From: Escherichia phage naam
Length of the DNA: 64,000 nt
Strand: one strand, 5' to 3'
Sequence record: MN850630.1
Shown here piece by piece: positions 9,506-28,580 of the stretch. The position numbers and the translations under genes are program-made. Numbering within the stretch: position 1 is the first letter of the stretch; every line of letters begins with the position of its first letter. The notes under the pieces were generated by a model that did no database searches, had not been told where the DNA came from, and was given only the letters and a program-made list of their open reading frames with translations.

Positions 9506-9588
9506 CAAATATCTATTGTAATTTACAGAAGGGGATGCTAAAATAGTGTCTCCTTCTATGTTGTTCAAATAAAATCGGAGATTCCATA

Positions 9589-9954
9589 ATGGAACAAATG
9601 AACGATCAAGCGTCGGTTGCGATGAACGAGCAAGAACAACCTCAAGAATTTTTCTTAGGGTTAAGTAAAGATCAAGTGTCTCTTCTGCTAGTGCTTTCTT
9701 CTTTCATGGGAAGACTTCAGGAGCTTACACAACAGCCAGAGGCTGAACAATTATTCCAGGCTCTGCGTGAAGAAGAAAAATATCGTCGTTTGGACTATGC
9801 CTTAGGTTGGGTAGCTCAACAACGGGATATGCTGATGGCCCTCTCTGGGACCACAAGTTTTGCAATGGGCCTGCTGGCTCAAGTTCAGGACAAATTAATT
9901 CAAGCAGGGTTTGCACACACGGCAAACACTAACGAAGAACAAGGAGACAAATAA
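9589..9954 (+). CDS. hypothetical protein
   Basis: 121 aa, coiled-coil-like, GGAGA RBS. Confidence 0.5.
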   Translation: MEQMNDQASVAMNEQEQPQEFFLGLSKDQVSLLLVLSSFMGRLQELTQQPEAEQLFQALREEEKYRRLDYALGWVAQQRDMLMALSGTTSFAMGLLAQVQDKLIQAGFAHTANTNEEQGDK

Positions 9955-14395: not shown

Positions 14396-14724
14396 CAGAG
14401 ATCATCGTTTCAACTGCAGGGTATGTATTCCTGACAATCATTGCGTTGGCTATTCTGGTGGCGGTGTATGGATTTGTTATCCTGCCTATTCTTGAGACAT
14501 TTAGCTTGTGTCGGTGTTGGAGAAAAGCTTACGGACCACAACCGTGGAAAGACTGGTTTCATTTGGTGCGTATAGCGTTCTCTTATGCCTATGATCACTC
14601 CAGCAGTGCATGCGTAACCGGGTACCATGCCTACAACTGGAACTGGGAAGGGCTGGGGAGATGGACTGTTACAAAAACTATACCCTTACGGTTGTATAAA
14701 GGAAAGAACACACTGGGAGCCTGA
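14392..14724 (+). CDS. putative membrane protein
   Basis: 110 aa, hydrophobic N-terminal helix, AAGGGG RBS, ATGA overlap. Confidence 0.5.
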   Translation: MTEIIVSTAGYVFLTIIALAILVAVYGFVILPILETFSLCRCWRKAYGPQPWKDWFHLVRIAFSYAYDHSSSACVTGYHAYNWNWEGLGRWTVTKTIPLRLYKGKNTLGA

Positions 14725-14759
14725 TATTTTAAGTTATCAGGTTGCCAGAGATCAGGAGG

Positions 14760-15260
14760 ATTTCTAAAATGGATTTCCTCCTTTTGATATTTTACCTACC
14801 AGGATATTTTAAAATCCTTAGAAAATCAGAAAATGGATCGAAAACTAAAATGGATTTTTCAGAGCAGGCACGACGAGATGAACCACTCATCCTATCGTCT
14901 GCACCATATTCCAGACCACCATTACAGATTTCCCGCACATGCTCACACCCTTCTACTAGAACTTCCCCCACTTACCCTTGACCTTTTATAGTAATAATCC
15001 AACCACTACCTTGAAGTTGTGGCGCAGCTTTCCAAGTACTCGATCTGTTTTTCGTTTCAAAGATTGAATTTTCTGAAAATTTTTCTCGATAAATTTCTCA
15101 GTACTCGATCTGTTTTTCGTTTTCTGAATCGGATTTTCTGGAAATCGTTCCGGCTCTCGACCTGAAATTTTTGGGGACGAAATCGATTTTTCGTTTTCAG
15201 AAATGGATTTTTAAAATTTCTATATGGGAATATTTTAGTGGATACTATTTTATAGGAAAT
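14760..15260. repeat. AT-rich non-coding region with iteron-like direct repeats and palindromes
   Basis: AAATGGAT(T/C) four times; 23-nt direct repeat AGTACTCGATCTGTTTTTCGTTT at 15038 and 15100; palindromes ATTTTCTGAAAAT, AGGATATTTTAAAATCCT. Confidence 0.6.
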
Positions 15261-15358
15261 TGTTACGGAGGGTAATTAGCGTGCTAATTAAATTTATTAA
15301 ATGCGAGGAGTTCTCATTTAGAATTTTGAATGATAATCATTCTCGTTTGCAGAATAAC

Positions 15359-15400
15359 GGGCAGGCCCGGTGATTGTCTCCCGGCCCCTGTTGCCCCGGC
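15359..15400. repeat. GC-rich conserved hairpin element, copy 1
   Basis: GGCAGGCCCGGTGATTGTCTCCCGGCCCCTGTT; conserved core GGTG(A/G)TTGTCTCCC. Confidence 0.55.
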
Positions 15401-15498
15401 TTGTTATTATAGTATCACACAGGACAAAGAAGGCAAGGATTTTTTGCATAAATTTTTAAATGATAATGATAACCGTTCTCATTTTATGCAGCGCCCAT

Positions 15499-15535
15499 CC
15501 CCGGTGGTTGTCTCCCCCGTCACCGGTGCCTGCCG
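15499..15535. repeat. GC-rich conserved hairpin element, copy 2
   Basis: CCGGTGGTTGTCTCCCCCGTCACCGGTGCCTGCC; stem CCGGTG/CACCGG around TTGTCTCCC. Confidence 0.55.
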
Positions 15536-15737
15536 TCCTTTCGATAGGTATATTGTGCCACCTGGCGGGGCCGCTGTCAACACCTTTTCAAAAAATTTTT
15601 CTAACCTGATGCGCTAACCGTTGCAACCTGGCGGGGCCAGCCTGGCAGGACCTAACTGACCAGGTGGGAGAGGGTGAAATCTTGCAAACCTGGTAGGCCC
15701 ATGCTGTAGGGTAAACAATTGAAGAGGAGGTACAAAA

Positions 15738-15980
15738 ATGAAAGGTAATGCTACTCACCTGGGAAATGTAGCGATTAATGACGCTGAGGCTATCACCCTG
15801 GTTGAAAAGGCTATGGCGGGAGCGTTGGAACATAAAGAAGAGTACGAAAAAATGATGGTTAACCTGGCAGGGGCGGCGGCTGGAGAATTCTGCCCAAAAA
15901 ATAATTCTAACCAATGGTTGACAGCTCGGATAGTTCTGTTATTCTTATCCTCGCAAGGTGAACAACACCACACTAATTAA
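15738..15980 (+). CDS. hypothetical protein
   Basis: 80 aa, GAGGAGG RBS. Confidence 0.55.
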   Translation: MKGNATHLGNVAINDAEAITLVEKAMAGALEHKEEYEKMMVNLAGAAAGEFCPKNNSNQWLTARIVLLFLSSQGEQHHTN

Positions 15981-15997
15981 CAGAGAGGATAAAAATC

Positions 15998-16195
15998 ATG
16001 AACGCCTACGGAATTAAAGTACGTCGCAACACTCGCCAGGCCGTCACCGATCAAATGGTTTGCCAGGTGGACGTAACCATCAACAACGGGCAAGGCCTTT
16101 ATAAATTCCGTCGCGGTCAGAGCTATACCCGGCAACAGCTTAATCGTTGCGCCCTGACAAAAGGCCAGATCAACCACTGGTTTAATAAAAAATAA
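15998..16195 (+). CDS. small basic protein
   Basis: 65 aa, R/K-rich, AGAGGA RBS. Confidence 0.5.
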   Translation: MNAYGIKVRRNTRQAVTDQMVCQVDVTINNGQGLYKFRRGQSYTRQQLNRCALTKGQINHWFNKK

Positions 16196-16198
16196 GTA

Positions 16199-16227
16199 TT
16201 GACATATAGTCCGACACCAAATACACT
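16199..16227 (+). promoter_or_regulatory. sigma70-type promoter (TTGACA-17-TACACT)
   Basis: Read directly upstream of 16260 gene. Confidence 0.5.
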
Positions 16228-16259
16228 AAAAGCACAAAAGACACTAAGAGGATAAAATC

Positions 16260-16658
16260 ATGAAAACCACTACCTTTAATTTTGATAATGCGGACTTTTC
16301 TTTTTCTGATGTCAAGAACTGCCGCCGTGATCGTGGATTCTACAAGGCTTATAATCTGGTTGGCCTGGACGATGACAATAATTTGCACGAAGTAGCTGAG
16401 ATCCGGTATTATGCCGCCGCCAGCGGGAACACTCACTACTGCGTGTTTTGGATTCACGACAACAAGAACAATAAGTACGGTTATACTGGCGGCAAGGCGA
16501 GCGGTCACGGTTACGATAAAGCTAACGCAGCACTTGAGAGCGCATTAAATGCTATGGGGATCACTGCCGACGGCTGGATCTACGAAGAAGAGTTTTTGTC
16601 GGCACTTGCTGACCACCTGGGCTATAAAAAACACATTGTAACATGCGCCCACGAATAA
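16260..16658 (+). CDS. hypothetical protein
   Basis: 132 aa, AAGAGGA RBS. Confidence 0.6.
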   Translation: MKTTTFNFDNADFSFSDVKNCRRDRGFYKAYNLVGLDDDNNLHEVAEIRYYAAASGNTHYCVFWIHDNKNNKYGYTGGKASGHGYDKANAALESALNAMGITADGWIYEEEFLSALADHLGYKKHIVTCAHE

Positions 16659-22395: not shown

Positions 22396-22457
22396 ACCTG
22401 GCGGGGCCGAAAAGGCCCCCGCCTGAAATTATGAAAAATAAAAAGAGGCAAACTATC

Positions 22458-24708: not shown

Positions 24709-24794
24709 ATAAAAGTGTTTTGGTACTGATTTTGGGGTTGACTTGTTCGGCCCCTTTTGCTATTCTTATTAAACGGGCGGCACTTGGGAACAGG

Positions 24795-24817
24795 GGGAGA
24801 CAATCACCAGGCCTGCC
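24795..24817. repeat. GC-rich conserved element, copy 3 (inverted relative to copies 1-2)
   Basis: GGGAGACAATCACCAGGCCTGCC is reverse complement of copy-1 core with one mismatch. Confidence 0.55.
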
Positions 24818-24842
24818 TGTCATATAAGAACTATAAAAACCG

Positions 24843-25668: not shown

Positions 25669-26088
25669 ATGAACATTAAATCTAATAATCCGGCATATAG
25701 CTTTGATAACGCTTTTTGTCACGGTCCGGCGGCGAAAGGATTCGAAATCGATGGTAAACTAATTATTGTCAATGTTGACGGGGAAGAGGTTGCAGTATAT
25801 CCGGTGGCAGACGTAAAAAGCCGTTTACAATGCCGCATGGATGTTACCGCCTATCAGCTTGATCCGGTCCGCATAGTTGCCCTGGTCCTGGAAGAAGAAA
25901 TTAAAGCCATGCACCATAGCAACAGATTTATTGGTGACGCGCAGGATAATATGAAAGTATGCCGCCATAAAGTTAATGAAGTGCTTAAAGAGTACGGCTA
26001 TAAAGATCTTATGATCAAACGTGAGGAAAAATTCCGCTACCGTAACGACCTGGCAAATCGGATTTTTGAAATATACGAATCATTATAA
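25669..26088 (+). CDS. hypothetical protein
   Basis: 139 aa, AAGAGG RBS; last gene of plus-strand block. Confidence 0.6.
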   Translation: MNIKSNNPAYSFDNAFCHGPAAKGFEIDGKLIIVNVDGEEVAVYPVADVKSRLQCRMDVTAYQLDPVRIVALVLEEEIKAMHHSNRFIGDAQDNMKVCRHKVNEVLKEYGYKDLMIKREEKFRYRNDLANRIFEIYESL

Positions 26089-26106
26089 TTTTTTAACTGA
26101 ATTATC

Positions 26107-26132
26107 AAGGGGCTTAGGCCCCTTTCTTTTTG
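26107..26132 (+). terminator. rho-independent terminator
   Basis: AAGGGGC-ttag-GCCCCTT + TCTTTTTG. Confidence 0.65.
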
Positions 26133-26135
26133 TCT

Positions 26136-28580
26136 GCTCTTCCCCCTACCATAAACGGCCCTACCTGGCAAGTGGAATAATTGACGAGCCATCAATCCTA
26201 CACACTGTACAAACATACATGTAAAATAGCTATTGCATAACCTTTCATTGTGTGGTAGCGGTGCTATTTTTTACCAGTTTTCCTTCCAAAATTGCACGTA
26301 ATGCCGCTATTGCACAAATTTTAACCTGATGCACATCTCCAATATCTTGTCAACAACTAAAAATCTTTATAAGTCATACACTTACACAGCATCGAAAGCG
26401 TGTTCTACGCGAAAAATCGAGTATAACTATAGCCGCCAGATCTCAGAATTCACGTACGCACGCCATTCTATAGCCTGCAAAGTATTTATTCCAACCACAG
26501 AATAACGGAATAGTCAATACCTGCATAAAATAATTATTAGTGTAAACTGCATAACATAAATCAGCTCAGGTGTCAACATTTTTCGTAAACAGTCCGAAAT
26601 TATCACGATGAGTTATCATAAACAGAGAAATCTTTAGTCGTCTAATGTTTACTGTACATTACTATACTGACTGGAATCATTAGATGACTAAGAGAAAGAT
26701 AAGAAATAATTAATAATGTAATTGTTTTACCTGTAACAATAAGGCAACTATGCAAACGAATGGCATGGCGCGACGGAGTCGCGACATAATATAAAAGCAG
26801 TAACCATCACCCCCGTGATAGTTTGTCTGCAATCTATTAATCAGATCATAGTTGCCTTGTATTCAGTTAATCATGACATGATAAGCAAGGCAACTATAGA
26901 TCTTCTAATAGTTGCCCTGCTTTTATATTATGTCATAGAAACACCCGAAGGGGTGACCAAAGGTCACCTGGCATAGCCAGTGAAAGATTATTAACTTGCT
27001 AATAGTTATCATGCAAACGAATGGCATGGCTGATTATCGGTGTGTAAACAGTCAATCATGTAAATGGTTAGCATGTGAACAATCAGAAATGTAAACAATC
27101 CAGTGTGTAAACTAATAGGTGTGTAAAAGTGTCATGTTGTGTCAGTTAGGTCACATTATGTCAGACAAGTTTTTCTCCTCTTTGTCAAGTGCTGCATGAA
27201 AAATTTACAAGCTTGTATGGTAGCATTTTTGCGGCCCTGTTTACATTCAGTGTTGTATGTATAATCCTTGTTGTGTGGGCGTTTAGACGTCTGGACGGTC
27301 AGAAGTCTGCAGGTTAATATCTAATCTATCGGCTGCTAACTATATCCCACACAAATAGTAAGAAATATAATTGTTATGTGCGTAAACAGTAACCCATGTT
27401 ATCAATCCCTGTATGTATCGCCAGTGGTGCGCATAATGGGTATTATGTTAAATTGCCCGTAATGATAACAGTTCTCACAATGATAGGTATTCTCATTCAC
27501 CCCCACAAGATAGGTTGCAAATGTTGTGCCACTGTGTGAACGGCCTGGCCTATTAATTTGCCTCACTGCCTTGATATTTGAGAATTATTATAAGAATGAG
27601 AAGTATTCCCATTTCGTCCGCCTGGCAGCACTCCTGTAGGTCAGGTCAAAATCGTGGTAGAACTAGACCTATCCGGATATTTCTGGCTGACTCTTCAGGT
27701 CTGTGTGGGAAAAGCCAACCTCTCCGGCGGGGCAGGGGGAGGTCAATTAAAAAATTTACGTGGTGTATGAAGCGCTCTTCAGGTAAGGCAGGTATTATGG
27801 GATGAAACCCGCTTCAGGCAATGATATTTGTGGGTGTGATATTTGCTGGAAGGCCAGATATGACGGGACTCCCGGCGGGGCAGGGGTAGTACAGACAGGG
27901 AAAATATGGGGATGTAGTTGGGGAAATTGATCAGACAGGTAGAGTATGGAATATGTTACAGGTATGTTAAATATGGAGGTTGAATATCTGTAGGATTTGT
28001 GTGTAAAATCAAAGACTTAAGGGGTGTTGTGGTATTTTCTATAAATAATTCAAGTTTAATAGGCAATATTTGTCTCTATCCGCTTTGTGTGGTAAACAGA
28101 TTCAGATGAGATTGGTTTACAAGTGTATACATAATATACAAATTAAAGATACAAGAAACCCCCCTCCCCCTTCGGCTACCATTCACCTTTTCCTCTGACT
28201 GGTACTTAAACACTTATTCAGACTCTTCAGGTTATCACCCATATATCATATGGCAGTGACTGGTGTCCTCCGGCCCCTCTTTCGTCACCCGTCCGCTTCG
28301 CCATGCTAATGCCATAGCTAATGGTTCGGTTGTTCACCCTGTTCACTCAGGTGTATCTCTATACCCCTTCAAACCGAAGAGAACAGAAAACCCGAATTAC
28401 TCGGTAAAAGAAAAGAGAAGAACTTAATTTTATCAGGATAGGCAAGAATGTCAAGGCATGACTGCTCACTAAACAAGCAAACAGTCATGTGTGGGAGGTA
28501 AGTGATTGTGGTGGTAGGAAATTTAGTTGAAAGATGTGTTATAGGTGCTTCCAGCACTTTAGCCGGGCAGCTAATTGTGT
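26136..28580. other. repeat-dense non-coding region between convergent gene blocks
   Basis: No convincing ORF; direct and inverted repeats, GTGTAAAC-like motif cluster, GC-rich direct repeats. Confidence 0.6.

Follow-up and report, generated by a model that had tools for sequence, protein, structure and literature searches.

Introduction

Among bacterial iron genes the Fur box is a textbook element, and it is also known from a few genes carried by prophages as cargo, for example stx1 and sitABCD. In Escherichia coli, footprinted Fur clusters are made up of overlapping registers spaced 6 (or 3) bases apart, and 83% of them overlap sigma-70 promoters (PMC2189734). A Fur consensus from the Fur-regulated TonB-dependent receptor genes of Xanthomonas, AATGAgAATcATTctCATT, was related by its authors to the Fur boxes of Shewanella and Bacillus (PMC1790865). 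Davison's analysis of the injection stop signal (iss) of phage T5 makes no mention of Fur (bioRxiv 10.1101/866236), and none of the literature searched describes conserved Fur boxes in control regions of phages that are strictly virulent. The present work concerns a GC-rich island with two direct repeat units in a 64,000-nucleotide stretch of Escherichia phage naam (sequence record MN850630.1), referred to below as the window, in which the repeats carry predicted Fur boxes.

The window belongs to an rV5-like myovirus (genus Vequintavirus), and its positions 14700-16300 matched 121 phage records at 80-99% identity. No credible genes are present in the ~1 kb around the island (14725-15737), a gap within a long run of small plus-strand early genes; in rV5, the same stretch forms the surroundings of 'ORF 198'. 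An earlier note made from the letters of the window had pointed out the island and its two units with a shared core, and both observations were borne out. The GC content is 0.575 at 15500-15699, as against 0.33-0.38 to the left at 15000-15300. A 17-nt core, CCCGGTG(A/G)TTGTCTCCC (repeat family D7), is present at 15366-15382 and 15500-15516 with 16/17 identical positions, and each copy follows a 33-nt preamble (repeat family D6, at 15316 and 15452) that is 73% identical between the units. All repeats described here were confirmed at the coordinates given, and their occurrence is far beyond chance.

The island is best explained as a duplicated phage-specific promoter/leader module controlled by the host Fur protein, that is, as a Fur-operated rightward non-coding transcription unit. 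We put the probability of this reading at about one half. From the sequence comparisons below we infer the binding of Fur, the promoter that fires, the transcripts and their function. The arrangement suggests that a virulent E. coli phage may link part of its early programme to the iron status of the host.

Fur boxes in the two units

Sites were scored as 19-bp inverted repeats against the E. coli 19-mer GATAATGATAATCATTATC or its 9-1-9 form AATGAnAATnATTnTCATT. The following sites were recognised near the units.

15329-15347 (element 15326..15347), plus strand: Fur box 1, the 9-1-9 palindrome AATGATAATCATTCTCGTT, 18/19; the E. coli 19-mer register at 15326-15344 scores 15/19
15459..15483, plus strand: Fur box 2, with AATGATAACCGTTCTCATT at 15465-15483 scoring 17/19 and an overlapping register 6 nt apart at 15459-15477 scoring 16/19
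15300..15318, plus strand: weak upstream Fur-like site or half-site AATGCGAGGAGTTCTCATT, 15/19, with the conserved half TTCTCATT

Boxes 1 and 2 are the highest-scoring Fur matches across the 64 kb. In the E. coli 19-mer register at 15462-15480, box 2 scores 16/19, the best such score in the window, and this is the sole site with no more than three mismatches from GATAATGATAATCATTATC, where none is expected. Box 1 has a second register 6 nt upstream (15323/15329), overlaps a -35-like hexamer TTGAAT (15326-15331) and is conserved in all relatives compared. The 6-nt spacing of registers at both boxes matches that of the footprinted E. coli clusters, and the half-site TTCTCRTT occurs three times in 170 bp as against 0.19 expected.

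At the homologous place, the palindrome is perfect (AATGAGAATCATTCTCATT) in Hena1, PVP-SE1-like phages and members of Certrevirus, Mydovirus and Phapecoctavirus, and it is often repeated to form arrays of 3-5 boxes. This palindrome is identical letter for letter to the Xanthomonas consensus (PMC1790865). Because the relatives carry a perfect published consensus, the identity of the preamble as a Fur-box motif is beyond doubt at the sequence level. The proposal of the earlier note that the repeats might be a protein-binding operator thus fits, but for the preamble (AATGATAAT...TTCTC), which would be the operator. For its suggestion of a replication or packaging signal, the evidence points neither way. 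Recognition by Fur would be the most secure piece of the explanation and the RNA function the least secure.

Fur boxes appear to be widespread in the genomes of phages, as judged by the exact 20-mer AATGAKAATCATTCTCRTTT, which is present in at least 120 very different viral contigs (IMG/VR, L005-L124; L numbers designate the sequences compared), where by our own estimate fewer than one is expected by chance. In these contigs the 20-mer often forms tandem arrays (L081, L073, L048), immediately follows TTGACA-N17-TAnAAT promoters or has DnaA boxes as neighbours (L044, L098).

A second, larger non-coding region of the window at 25800-28400 (rV5 104013-106618) also includes Fur-like boxes, at 27461-27497 and 27579-27613 (17/19), and a run of TGTGTAAAC-type iterons (especially at 27040-27130). 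Four sites in the window score at least 17/19, and all of them lie in the two non-coding regions. The rV5 genome paper merely marks a 'non-coding' box (PMC3606486), which is probably the region at 25800-28400 rather than the gap at 14725-15737.

Architecture of the module

A total of 26 distinct homologues from Vequinta-, Certre-, Mydo-, Seuna-, Henuna- and Phapecoctavirus and from one Aeromonas phage align ungapped and colinearly from the Fur box through the core motif. The order of parts is TTG-AATGAKAATCATTCTCRTT, T-NN-GAAT, RRCRGGCA, five variable bases and YGGTGWTTGTCTC, followed by a variable GC-rich segment of 23-26 nt and then a good -10 hexamer. In the window, these parts and the further copies are as follows.

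15350..15355, plus strand: CAGAAT, a hexamer resembling a -10 and separated from TTGAAT by 18 nt; it shares the 6-nt phase of the Fur hexamers
15366..15382, plus strand: core motif copy 1, CCCGGTGATTGTCTCCC (family consensus YGGTGWTTGTCTC); distance to the Fur box fixed at 21 nt, to the following -10 36-39 nt
15402..15410, plus strand: putative promoter P2, extended -10 TGTTATTAT, predicted start near 15417, position conserved in the alignment
15500..15516, plus strand: core motif copy 2, CCCGGTGGTTGTCTCCC, located by repeat search
24760..24835, minus strand: third module copy, TTATAT-GACAGGCA-GGCCTGGTGATTGTCTCC...TAATAAGAAT, without a good Fur box

The combination TTGAAT-N18-CAGAAT fits a promoter that overlaps Fur box 1, and a simple promoter scan made no call there. 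GAAT of the -10-like hexamer is nearly invariant in the 26 homologues, and TTG of TTGAAT is also conserved. The predicted start of this upstream promoter is near A15363, within the conserved GGCA. P2 has the better-conserved -10 of the two, which reads TATAAT without mismatch in Certre- and Mydovirus and takes the form TGTGATAAT in the phages Hena1 and 4MG. A conserved 13-nt motif, GGTGWTTGTCTCC, is placed at approximately +8 to +20 of the upstream promoter, or at -48 to -36 of P2.

A third exact copy of the 13-nt motif (GGTGATTGTCTCC), overlooked in the earlier note, was found on the minus strand at 24796-24808. The rV5 genome has exactly three copies, namely those of units 1 and 2 and an inverted one corresponding to 24796-24808 of the window. 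The third module copy sits between two plus-strand promoters, TTGACT-N17-TATTCT (24738) and TTGACA-N17-TAACAT (24843); it faces the promoter at 24738 and reaches into the -10 of that promoter with its AT-rich 3' end. The homologue L237 does have a Fur box. In rV5, the third copy has a 3' half of the unit 2 type (GTCGCCAGGTGCCTGCCG), which suggests exchange between module copies. By-eye comparison of the 13-nt motif with CRP, ops/RfaH, LexA and mar-box sites and with a -35 of P2 gave no fit.

Conservation and phage specificity

Among rV5-like phages, positions 15050-15550 are 94-100% identical, which equals or exceeds the identity of the flanking genes, and 15490-15545 is invariant in eight of them. 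The module was found in the Vequintavirinae, in phi92-like phages and in Aeromonas phages, and the hosts include Escherichia, Klebsiella, Salmonella, Cronobacter, Enterobacter, Pectobacterium, Erwinia, Serratia, Proteus and Aeromonas. Retention of a non-coding module at 80-88% identity over this host range argues for strong constraint, and the comparison established both its fixed geometry and its wide conservation. Sixteen GenBank records for 'Campylobacter phage' (many UNVERIFIED) were rV5-like coliphage genomes at 90-95% identity, and are probably mislabelled or from contaminant isolates.

No sequence similar to the locus was detected among 5,426 complete E. coli genomes. A search of 185,579 bacterial genomes with the composite pattern returned two contigs only, of which one looked like a chance match and the other like a phapecoctavirus-type contig mis-binned into a metagenome-assembled genome. 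By these searches, the module is phage-specific.

Local hairpins and the inverted repeat

According to the earlier note, each unit folds into a stem-loop that presents TTGTCTCCC in its loop and is flanked by GGCAGGC/GCCTGCC-type arms. The features that bear on this proposal are listed below.

15358..15398, plus strand: local stem-loop of unit 1, outer stem CGGGCA...TGCCCCG and inner stem CCGG/CCGG; drawable, not significant, structure not conserved
15360..15534, no strand assigned: 13-bp inverted repeat with a 1-nt bulge, GGCAGGCCCGGTG at 15360-72 with CACCGGTGCCTGCC at 15521-34, closing a domain of both units
15501..15545, plus strand: unit 2 stem CCGGTG (15501-06) with CACCGG (15521-26), then the pyrimidine/U-rich GTCCTTTCGAT, in the place of the stem and tail of element B (see below)

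The stem-loops can be drawn, but their stability does not exceed that of shuffled sequences, with z values for the two units of -0.88 and -1.16 on the plus strand and -1.94 and -1.17 on the minus strand. Minimum-energy folds disagree among 28 homologues, and the RNAalifold consensus over 26 homologues amounts to three pairs and -1.5 kcal/mol, i.e. essentially nothing. When the hairpin of the window was imposed on the family, 65% of cells were paired as against 50-57% in slid controls, and two pairs were changed on both sides as against a shuffle mean of 1.8; there is thus no excess of covariation, with some uncertainty in how the variable 3' half aligns. Single-sequence folds, RNAalifold and explicit pair counting all gave no support for a conserved hairpin with TTGTCTCCC in its loop. 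As all the hairpin tests were negative, the conservation is at the level of primary sequence: the strong conservation in related genomes that the earlier note had asked about was found, but not the compensatory changes.

The proposed check by structure prediction and covariance models likewise failed to yield a structured RNA in the units. At the gathering threshold, no Rfam family matched in the 64 kb. A search of 14700-15800 up to E = 5 gave only two weak sub-threshold matches to unrelated families elsewhere in the gap and none over the units, and permissive E-values returned nothing relevant for seven related loci.

The GGCAGGC/GCCTGCC arms do exist, but instead of flanking each unit they form the single 13-bp inverted repeat that encloses both. 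The domain fold closed by this repeat has z values of -2.1 on the plus strand and -3.1 on the minus strand (0/200 shuffles). A two-base switch from GGCAGG to GGCACC at 15364-15365 is recurrent between very close relatives in several genera, while the downstream partner is unchanged. The GGCACC allele (rV5, L122) pairs with GGTGCC in a shifted register, and both alleles are complementary to GGTGCCTGCC (15525-15534). Such pairing of the two alleles with GGTGCCTGCC is suggestive only.

A structured RNA in relatives: element B

In all relatives outside Vequintavirus, the slot of unit 2 is held by a different sequence of 95 nt, designated element B, which is absent from the window and from Rfam.

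L249 1340-1440, L003 1678-1775, L004 1675-1770 and L245-L252, plus strand: element B, in relatives only

Element B is composed of CTACCGGCGATCCACCTTCC, a variable and covarying first hairpin, GTTAGCCCCGCC...GTGGGGTGGCG with a second stem of 11 bp, and a U/C-rich tail. Its structure pairs in 92.5% of cells as against 36-60% in slid controls, with the second stem 97.7% paired. Four G.U/U.G positions are compatible only with the plus strand, and U.G-to-C.G changes are seen. A plus-strand RNA structure in the relatives is thus established by covariation, and given the strand of this pairing, the locus of the relatives is very probably transcribed rightward into a non-coding RNA. In W70, the tail of element B aligns by eye with GTCCTTTCGAT, which follows unit 2 in the window. 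On the preferred reading, the tandem repeat of rV5-like phages arose when a second copy of the 5' half took the place of element B, the 3' half of the ancestral locus.

The 5' part of element B resembles the 3' end of 16S rRNA (GATCACCTCC). Two direct TCTTTACA repeats 10 bp apart lie just upstream of the element (L249 ~1315-1335, L003 ~1650-1672, L004 ~1645-1668) and are absent from the window. On the other strand these read GTAAA-N5-GTAAA, which we take to be the CpxR box consensus; they may be a site for another host regulator.

Convergent promoter and remaining features of the gap

To the right of the units, a promoter on the opposite strand and further repeats complete the gap; a predicted open reading frame (ORF) overlaps the units, and iterons lie in the AT-rich left half of the gap.

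15552..15580, minus strand: sigma-70 promoter TTGACA-N17-CACAAT, predicted start near 15545, convergent with the units
15026..15211, no strand assigned: three ~65-bp iterons (AGTACTCGATCTGTTTTTCGTTT...; repeat family D1/D2) in the AT-rich left half of the same gap
15559..15706, plus strand: four copies of ACCTGG(C/T)(G/A)GG... (family D3), which include the second CCTGGCGGGGCC copy (15627-15638), together with five CCWGG sites
15330..15617, plus strand: spurious ORF (ORF 198 in rV5), ATG inside Fur box 1, no Shine-Dalgarno sequence
L245 1480-1746, L250 1474-1740, L252 1479-1745, L246 1519-1710 and L003 1819-2004, minus strand: small protein of the relatives, missing from the window

The minus-strand promoter is kept at the same place in W70, ukendt, Certrevirus and 4MG, and as a sequence element a conserved convergent promoter is well established. 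There is no gene for it to express, and a transcript from it would be antisense to the units and head for the iterons at 15026-15211. Its spacer is 88% GC and coincides with the first copy of CCTGGCGGGGCC (15561-15572). The earlier note had singled out CCTGGCGGGGCC as a recurring motif, and there are indeed three exact copies (15561, 15627 and 22397) as against 0.09 expected. They do not constitute one element, however, since the first is a promoter spacer and that at 22397 is one arm of an unrelated terminator-like hairpin; a single shared function was rejected because the three copies stand in different contexts. A further repeat, TGCNACCTGGCGGGGCC (family D8), occurs at 15556 and 15622.

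The iterons are 96-100% conserved among rV5-like phages, and two of the three carry GATC. Analogous triple repeats are present in Hena1 and ukendt. An origin or a protein-binding array are possibilities for the iterons. Positions 15559-15706 are poorly conserved, with 76-92% identity among rV5-like phages. In the relatives, the small minus-strand protein, of 88 amino acids (phrog_19316) or 61-63 amino acids (DUF7170), is encoded just right of the convergent promoter; from by-eye comparison with ukendt only, both 15559-15706 and the overlapping 15600-15737 look like a degenerate remnant of that ORF region.

The locus is part of a long early transcription unit that also carries replication genes, with the DNA polymerase gene ~10 kb upstream. 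Downstream of it lie dozens of small genes with sigma-70 promoters of their own. Ten flanking or syntenic small proteins gave matches only to DUF7170 or to PHROGs of unknown function, and ARAGORN detected no tRNA or tmRNA in the window.

Proposed mechanism and alternatives

Under the preferred reading of a Fur-operated rightward unit, Fur-Fe2+ would occupy the boxes when iron is available. Box 1 fills the spacer of TTGAAT-N18-CAGAAT, the classic geometry of repression, and would shut the upstream promoter. Box 2 lies ~45-65 nt downstream of the predicted P2 start, so that Fur bound there would block elongation from P2. Iron starvation, or titration of Fur by the multiplying phage genomes, would then open rightward non-coding transcription. 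The GC-rich discriminator of the upstream promoter would end in the conserved GGCA, followed by the 13-nt motif, which would be either the 5' end of the RNA, if this is a small RNA, or a protein site at -48 to -36 of P2. The transcript would end at the stem and U-rich tract near 15545, where it would meet the strong convergent promoter reading from 15580 to 15552. The expected product is a non-coding RNA or a sense/antisense pair, not a protein.

Several observations weigh against this scheme. The -11 A is missing from the -10-like hexamer in Mydovirus (CTGAAT) and in L111 (CGGAAT), unit 2 has only TTTTAT at the matching place, and CAGAAT could be just another in-phase Fur hexamer. No canonical intrinsic terminator was called in the window, with no call in 15300-15720, and unit 2 is followed by only a short U-tract. 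The minus-strand RNA of the domain folds more significantly than the plus-strand RNA, as given above. For the 13-nt motif, no complementary target was found in the phage genome beyond its own antisense copies. Given that the third copy lacks a good Fur box and has the opposite orientation, the motif can act in the absence of Fur, and whichever way the neighbouring genes point.

A more specific possibility, which we regard as doubtful, is that the units encode Fur-repressed small RNAs, a family of three per genome analogous to RyhB or to the tandem PrrF1/PrrF2, in which the conserved and anti-Shine-Dalgarno-like 5' segment GGUGAUUGUCUCC would act as a seed on GGAGACAAUCACC-type ribosome-binding regions of the host. 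The Fur box in promoter position, the tandem units, the sharing of only the 13-nt motif by the three copies, the placement of this motif at the predicted 5' end as the best-conserved transcribed part, the terminator-like plus-strand stem downstream in the relatives and the phage specificity of the module are all in keeping with such RNAs. They are countered by the failure of RyhB, PrrF or any other Rfam family to match even at permissive E-values, by the want of a canonical terminator with a poly-U tail in the window and of a target within the phage genome, and by a predicted promoter that is weak or defective in some lineages.

It is unlikely that the 1-kb gap is instead a replication origin, in which leftward transcription from the strong minus-strand promoter, passing through the units as their G-rich antisense, would activate or prime the iterons and AT-rich stretch at 15026-15300, with the Fur boxes as a gate or roadblock. 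In favour of an origin, the minus-strand promoter has no protein-coding gene, and three ~65-bp iterons and low GC (0.33-0.38) lie directly in its downstream path; moreover, the minus-strand RNA is G-rich with a significant fold, the iteron architecture is kept in Hena1 and ukendt, and the gap belongs to the transcription unit of the replication genes. However, DnaA sites (TTWTNCACA, even TNWTNCACA) and IHF sites, like CpxR sites, were all absent from 14725-15737, no initiator gene was identified adjacent to the locus, where the neighbours are of unknown function, and the region at ~25.8-28.4 kb with its own iterons and Fur-like boxes is an equally good candidate. Nor is there a turning point of GC skew at the locus; the authors of the rV5 genome noted that GC skew changes only at strand switches (PMC3606486).

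Less probable still is a DNA-level docking array for host proteins like the injection-stop region of T5, whose Fur boxes would tether, pause or organise the incoming genome or titrate Fur without regulating a promoter. In its favour, ~8 Fur-like repeats form an array in the annotated injection stop signal of T5, a colinear module (Fur box-GAGAAT-GGGGGCAC...GGTAGTTG) is found in T5 relatives where the terminal repeat has its inner edge, both phage groups place their boxes in large, conserved and repeat-rich non-coding regions, and arrays of 3-5 boxes occur in the relatives of the window. DnaA box pairs, by which the T5 region is defined, are not present in 14725-15737, however, nothing points to terminal repeats or stepwise injection in rV5-like phages, and the positions of the element in the records are arbitrary in most genomes. 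Fixed spacing to the -10 hexamers also fits promoter control better.

That a protein-coding gene accounts for the conservation of the repeats is virtually untenable: an ORF of 92-97 codons is annotated here in rV5, EduardKellenberger, WalterGehring and others, but its frame meets TGC TGA after seven codons in Mydovirus and TAG in ukendt despite conservation at the DNA level, and stops also in Phapecoctavirus; substitutions in 15330-15617 among eight rV5-like phages fall 14/14/11 on the codon positions; an A-run at ~15588-15596 varies in length by non-multiples of 3; and the ATG is in a Fur box without a Shine-Dalgarno sequence. These comparisons establish the region as non-coding, and the earlier note was right to call the ORF spurious for its missing ribosome-binding site. 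Regardless of whether Fur binds, the annotations of the ORF 198 type in ~100 genomes are spurious, and the region is better annotated as regulatory.

Comparison with known systems

The module, seen as a predicted operator, shares with Fur-repressed sigma-70 promoters of the iucA, fhuA and fepA type a 19-bp inverted-repeat operator, overlapping registers 6 nt apart, the position of the operator between -35- and -10-like hexamers and, in the relatives, arrays. It differs from these in that it belongs to strictly virulent phages, would control no iron gene or protein-coding gene, and has the 13-nt motif and a second promoter. As a type of element the Fur box is known already; what appears to be undescribed in the literature searched is that virulent phages conserve it in their non-coding control regions, and also the phage-specific motif attached to it.

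The module also resembles the tandem Fur-repressed small RNA genes PrrF1/PrrF2 of Pseudomonas, and RyhB. The likeness consists in two direct copies ~135 bp apart, each with its own Fur box and a short shared segment, and in the expectation of a short non-coding product. Unlike those genes, the units match neither RF00057 nor RF00444 nor any other Rfam family, there is no clear terminator in the window, and the copies share only ~17 nt rather than being near-identical.

Like the iss region of T5, the locus is a large, highly conserved and repeat-rich non-coding region of a virulent coliphage with multiple Fur-like palindromes, and some T5-like phages have a colinear Fur box / -10 / GGGCAC...GGTRRTTG module. 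Two features define the iss, paired DnaA boxes and a location in the terminal repeat, and neither was seen at the locus of the window. In T5 (AY692264, ~9510-9750; L253 1893-2130), ~8 repeats that resemble Fur boxes (GAATGATTCTCATTTAAAAAG and similar) lie beside DnaA boxes inside the injection stop signal. Next to this region, T5 relatives of the chee24 type (contigs L010, L048, L051, L067 and L104) have the Fur box-GAGAAT module as a colinear counterpart of the rV5 unit. That the T5 repeats are Fur-like is a reading put forward here and not one of the literature.

In the widest form of the argument, which is speculative and rather improbable, at least two unrelated virulent lineages (the Vequintavirinae with phi92-like phages, and the T5-like Demerecviridae) would have captured the signal of the host Fur regulon and placed arrays of boxes in their main non-coding control regions, including the injection-stop region of T5; in the rV5 group these would drive a family of non-coding RNAs induced by iron starvation, with a 13-nt anti-Shine-Dalgarno-like seed, that reprogramme host or phage expression. 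Phages of the rV5-like, phi92-like and T5-like groups are common therapy and typing phages. If Fur binds, they would read the iron status of the host, which shifts sharply in the gut and in infection, and this would provide a testable handle on the dependence of phage efficacy on host physiology. It would further suggest a concrete explanation for the palindromes in the injection-stop region of T5, which have long been unexplained, and could reveal a new family of phage non-coding RNAs.

A further comparison is with the element B locus of Certre-, Mydo-, Seuna- and Phapecoctavirus, which shares with that of the window the slot, the upstream Fur-box module, the downstream convergent promoter and the position of the U-rich tail. 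The two differ in what fills the slot, which is a covariation-supported two-hairpin RNA of the plus strand in those genera, and in the rV5-like phages a second copy of the Fur-box module.

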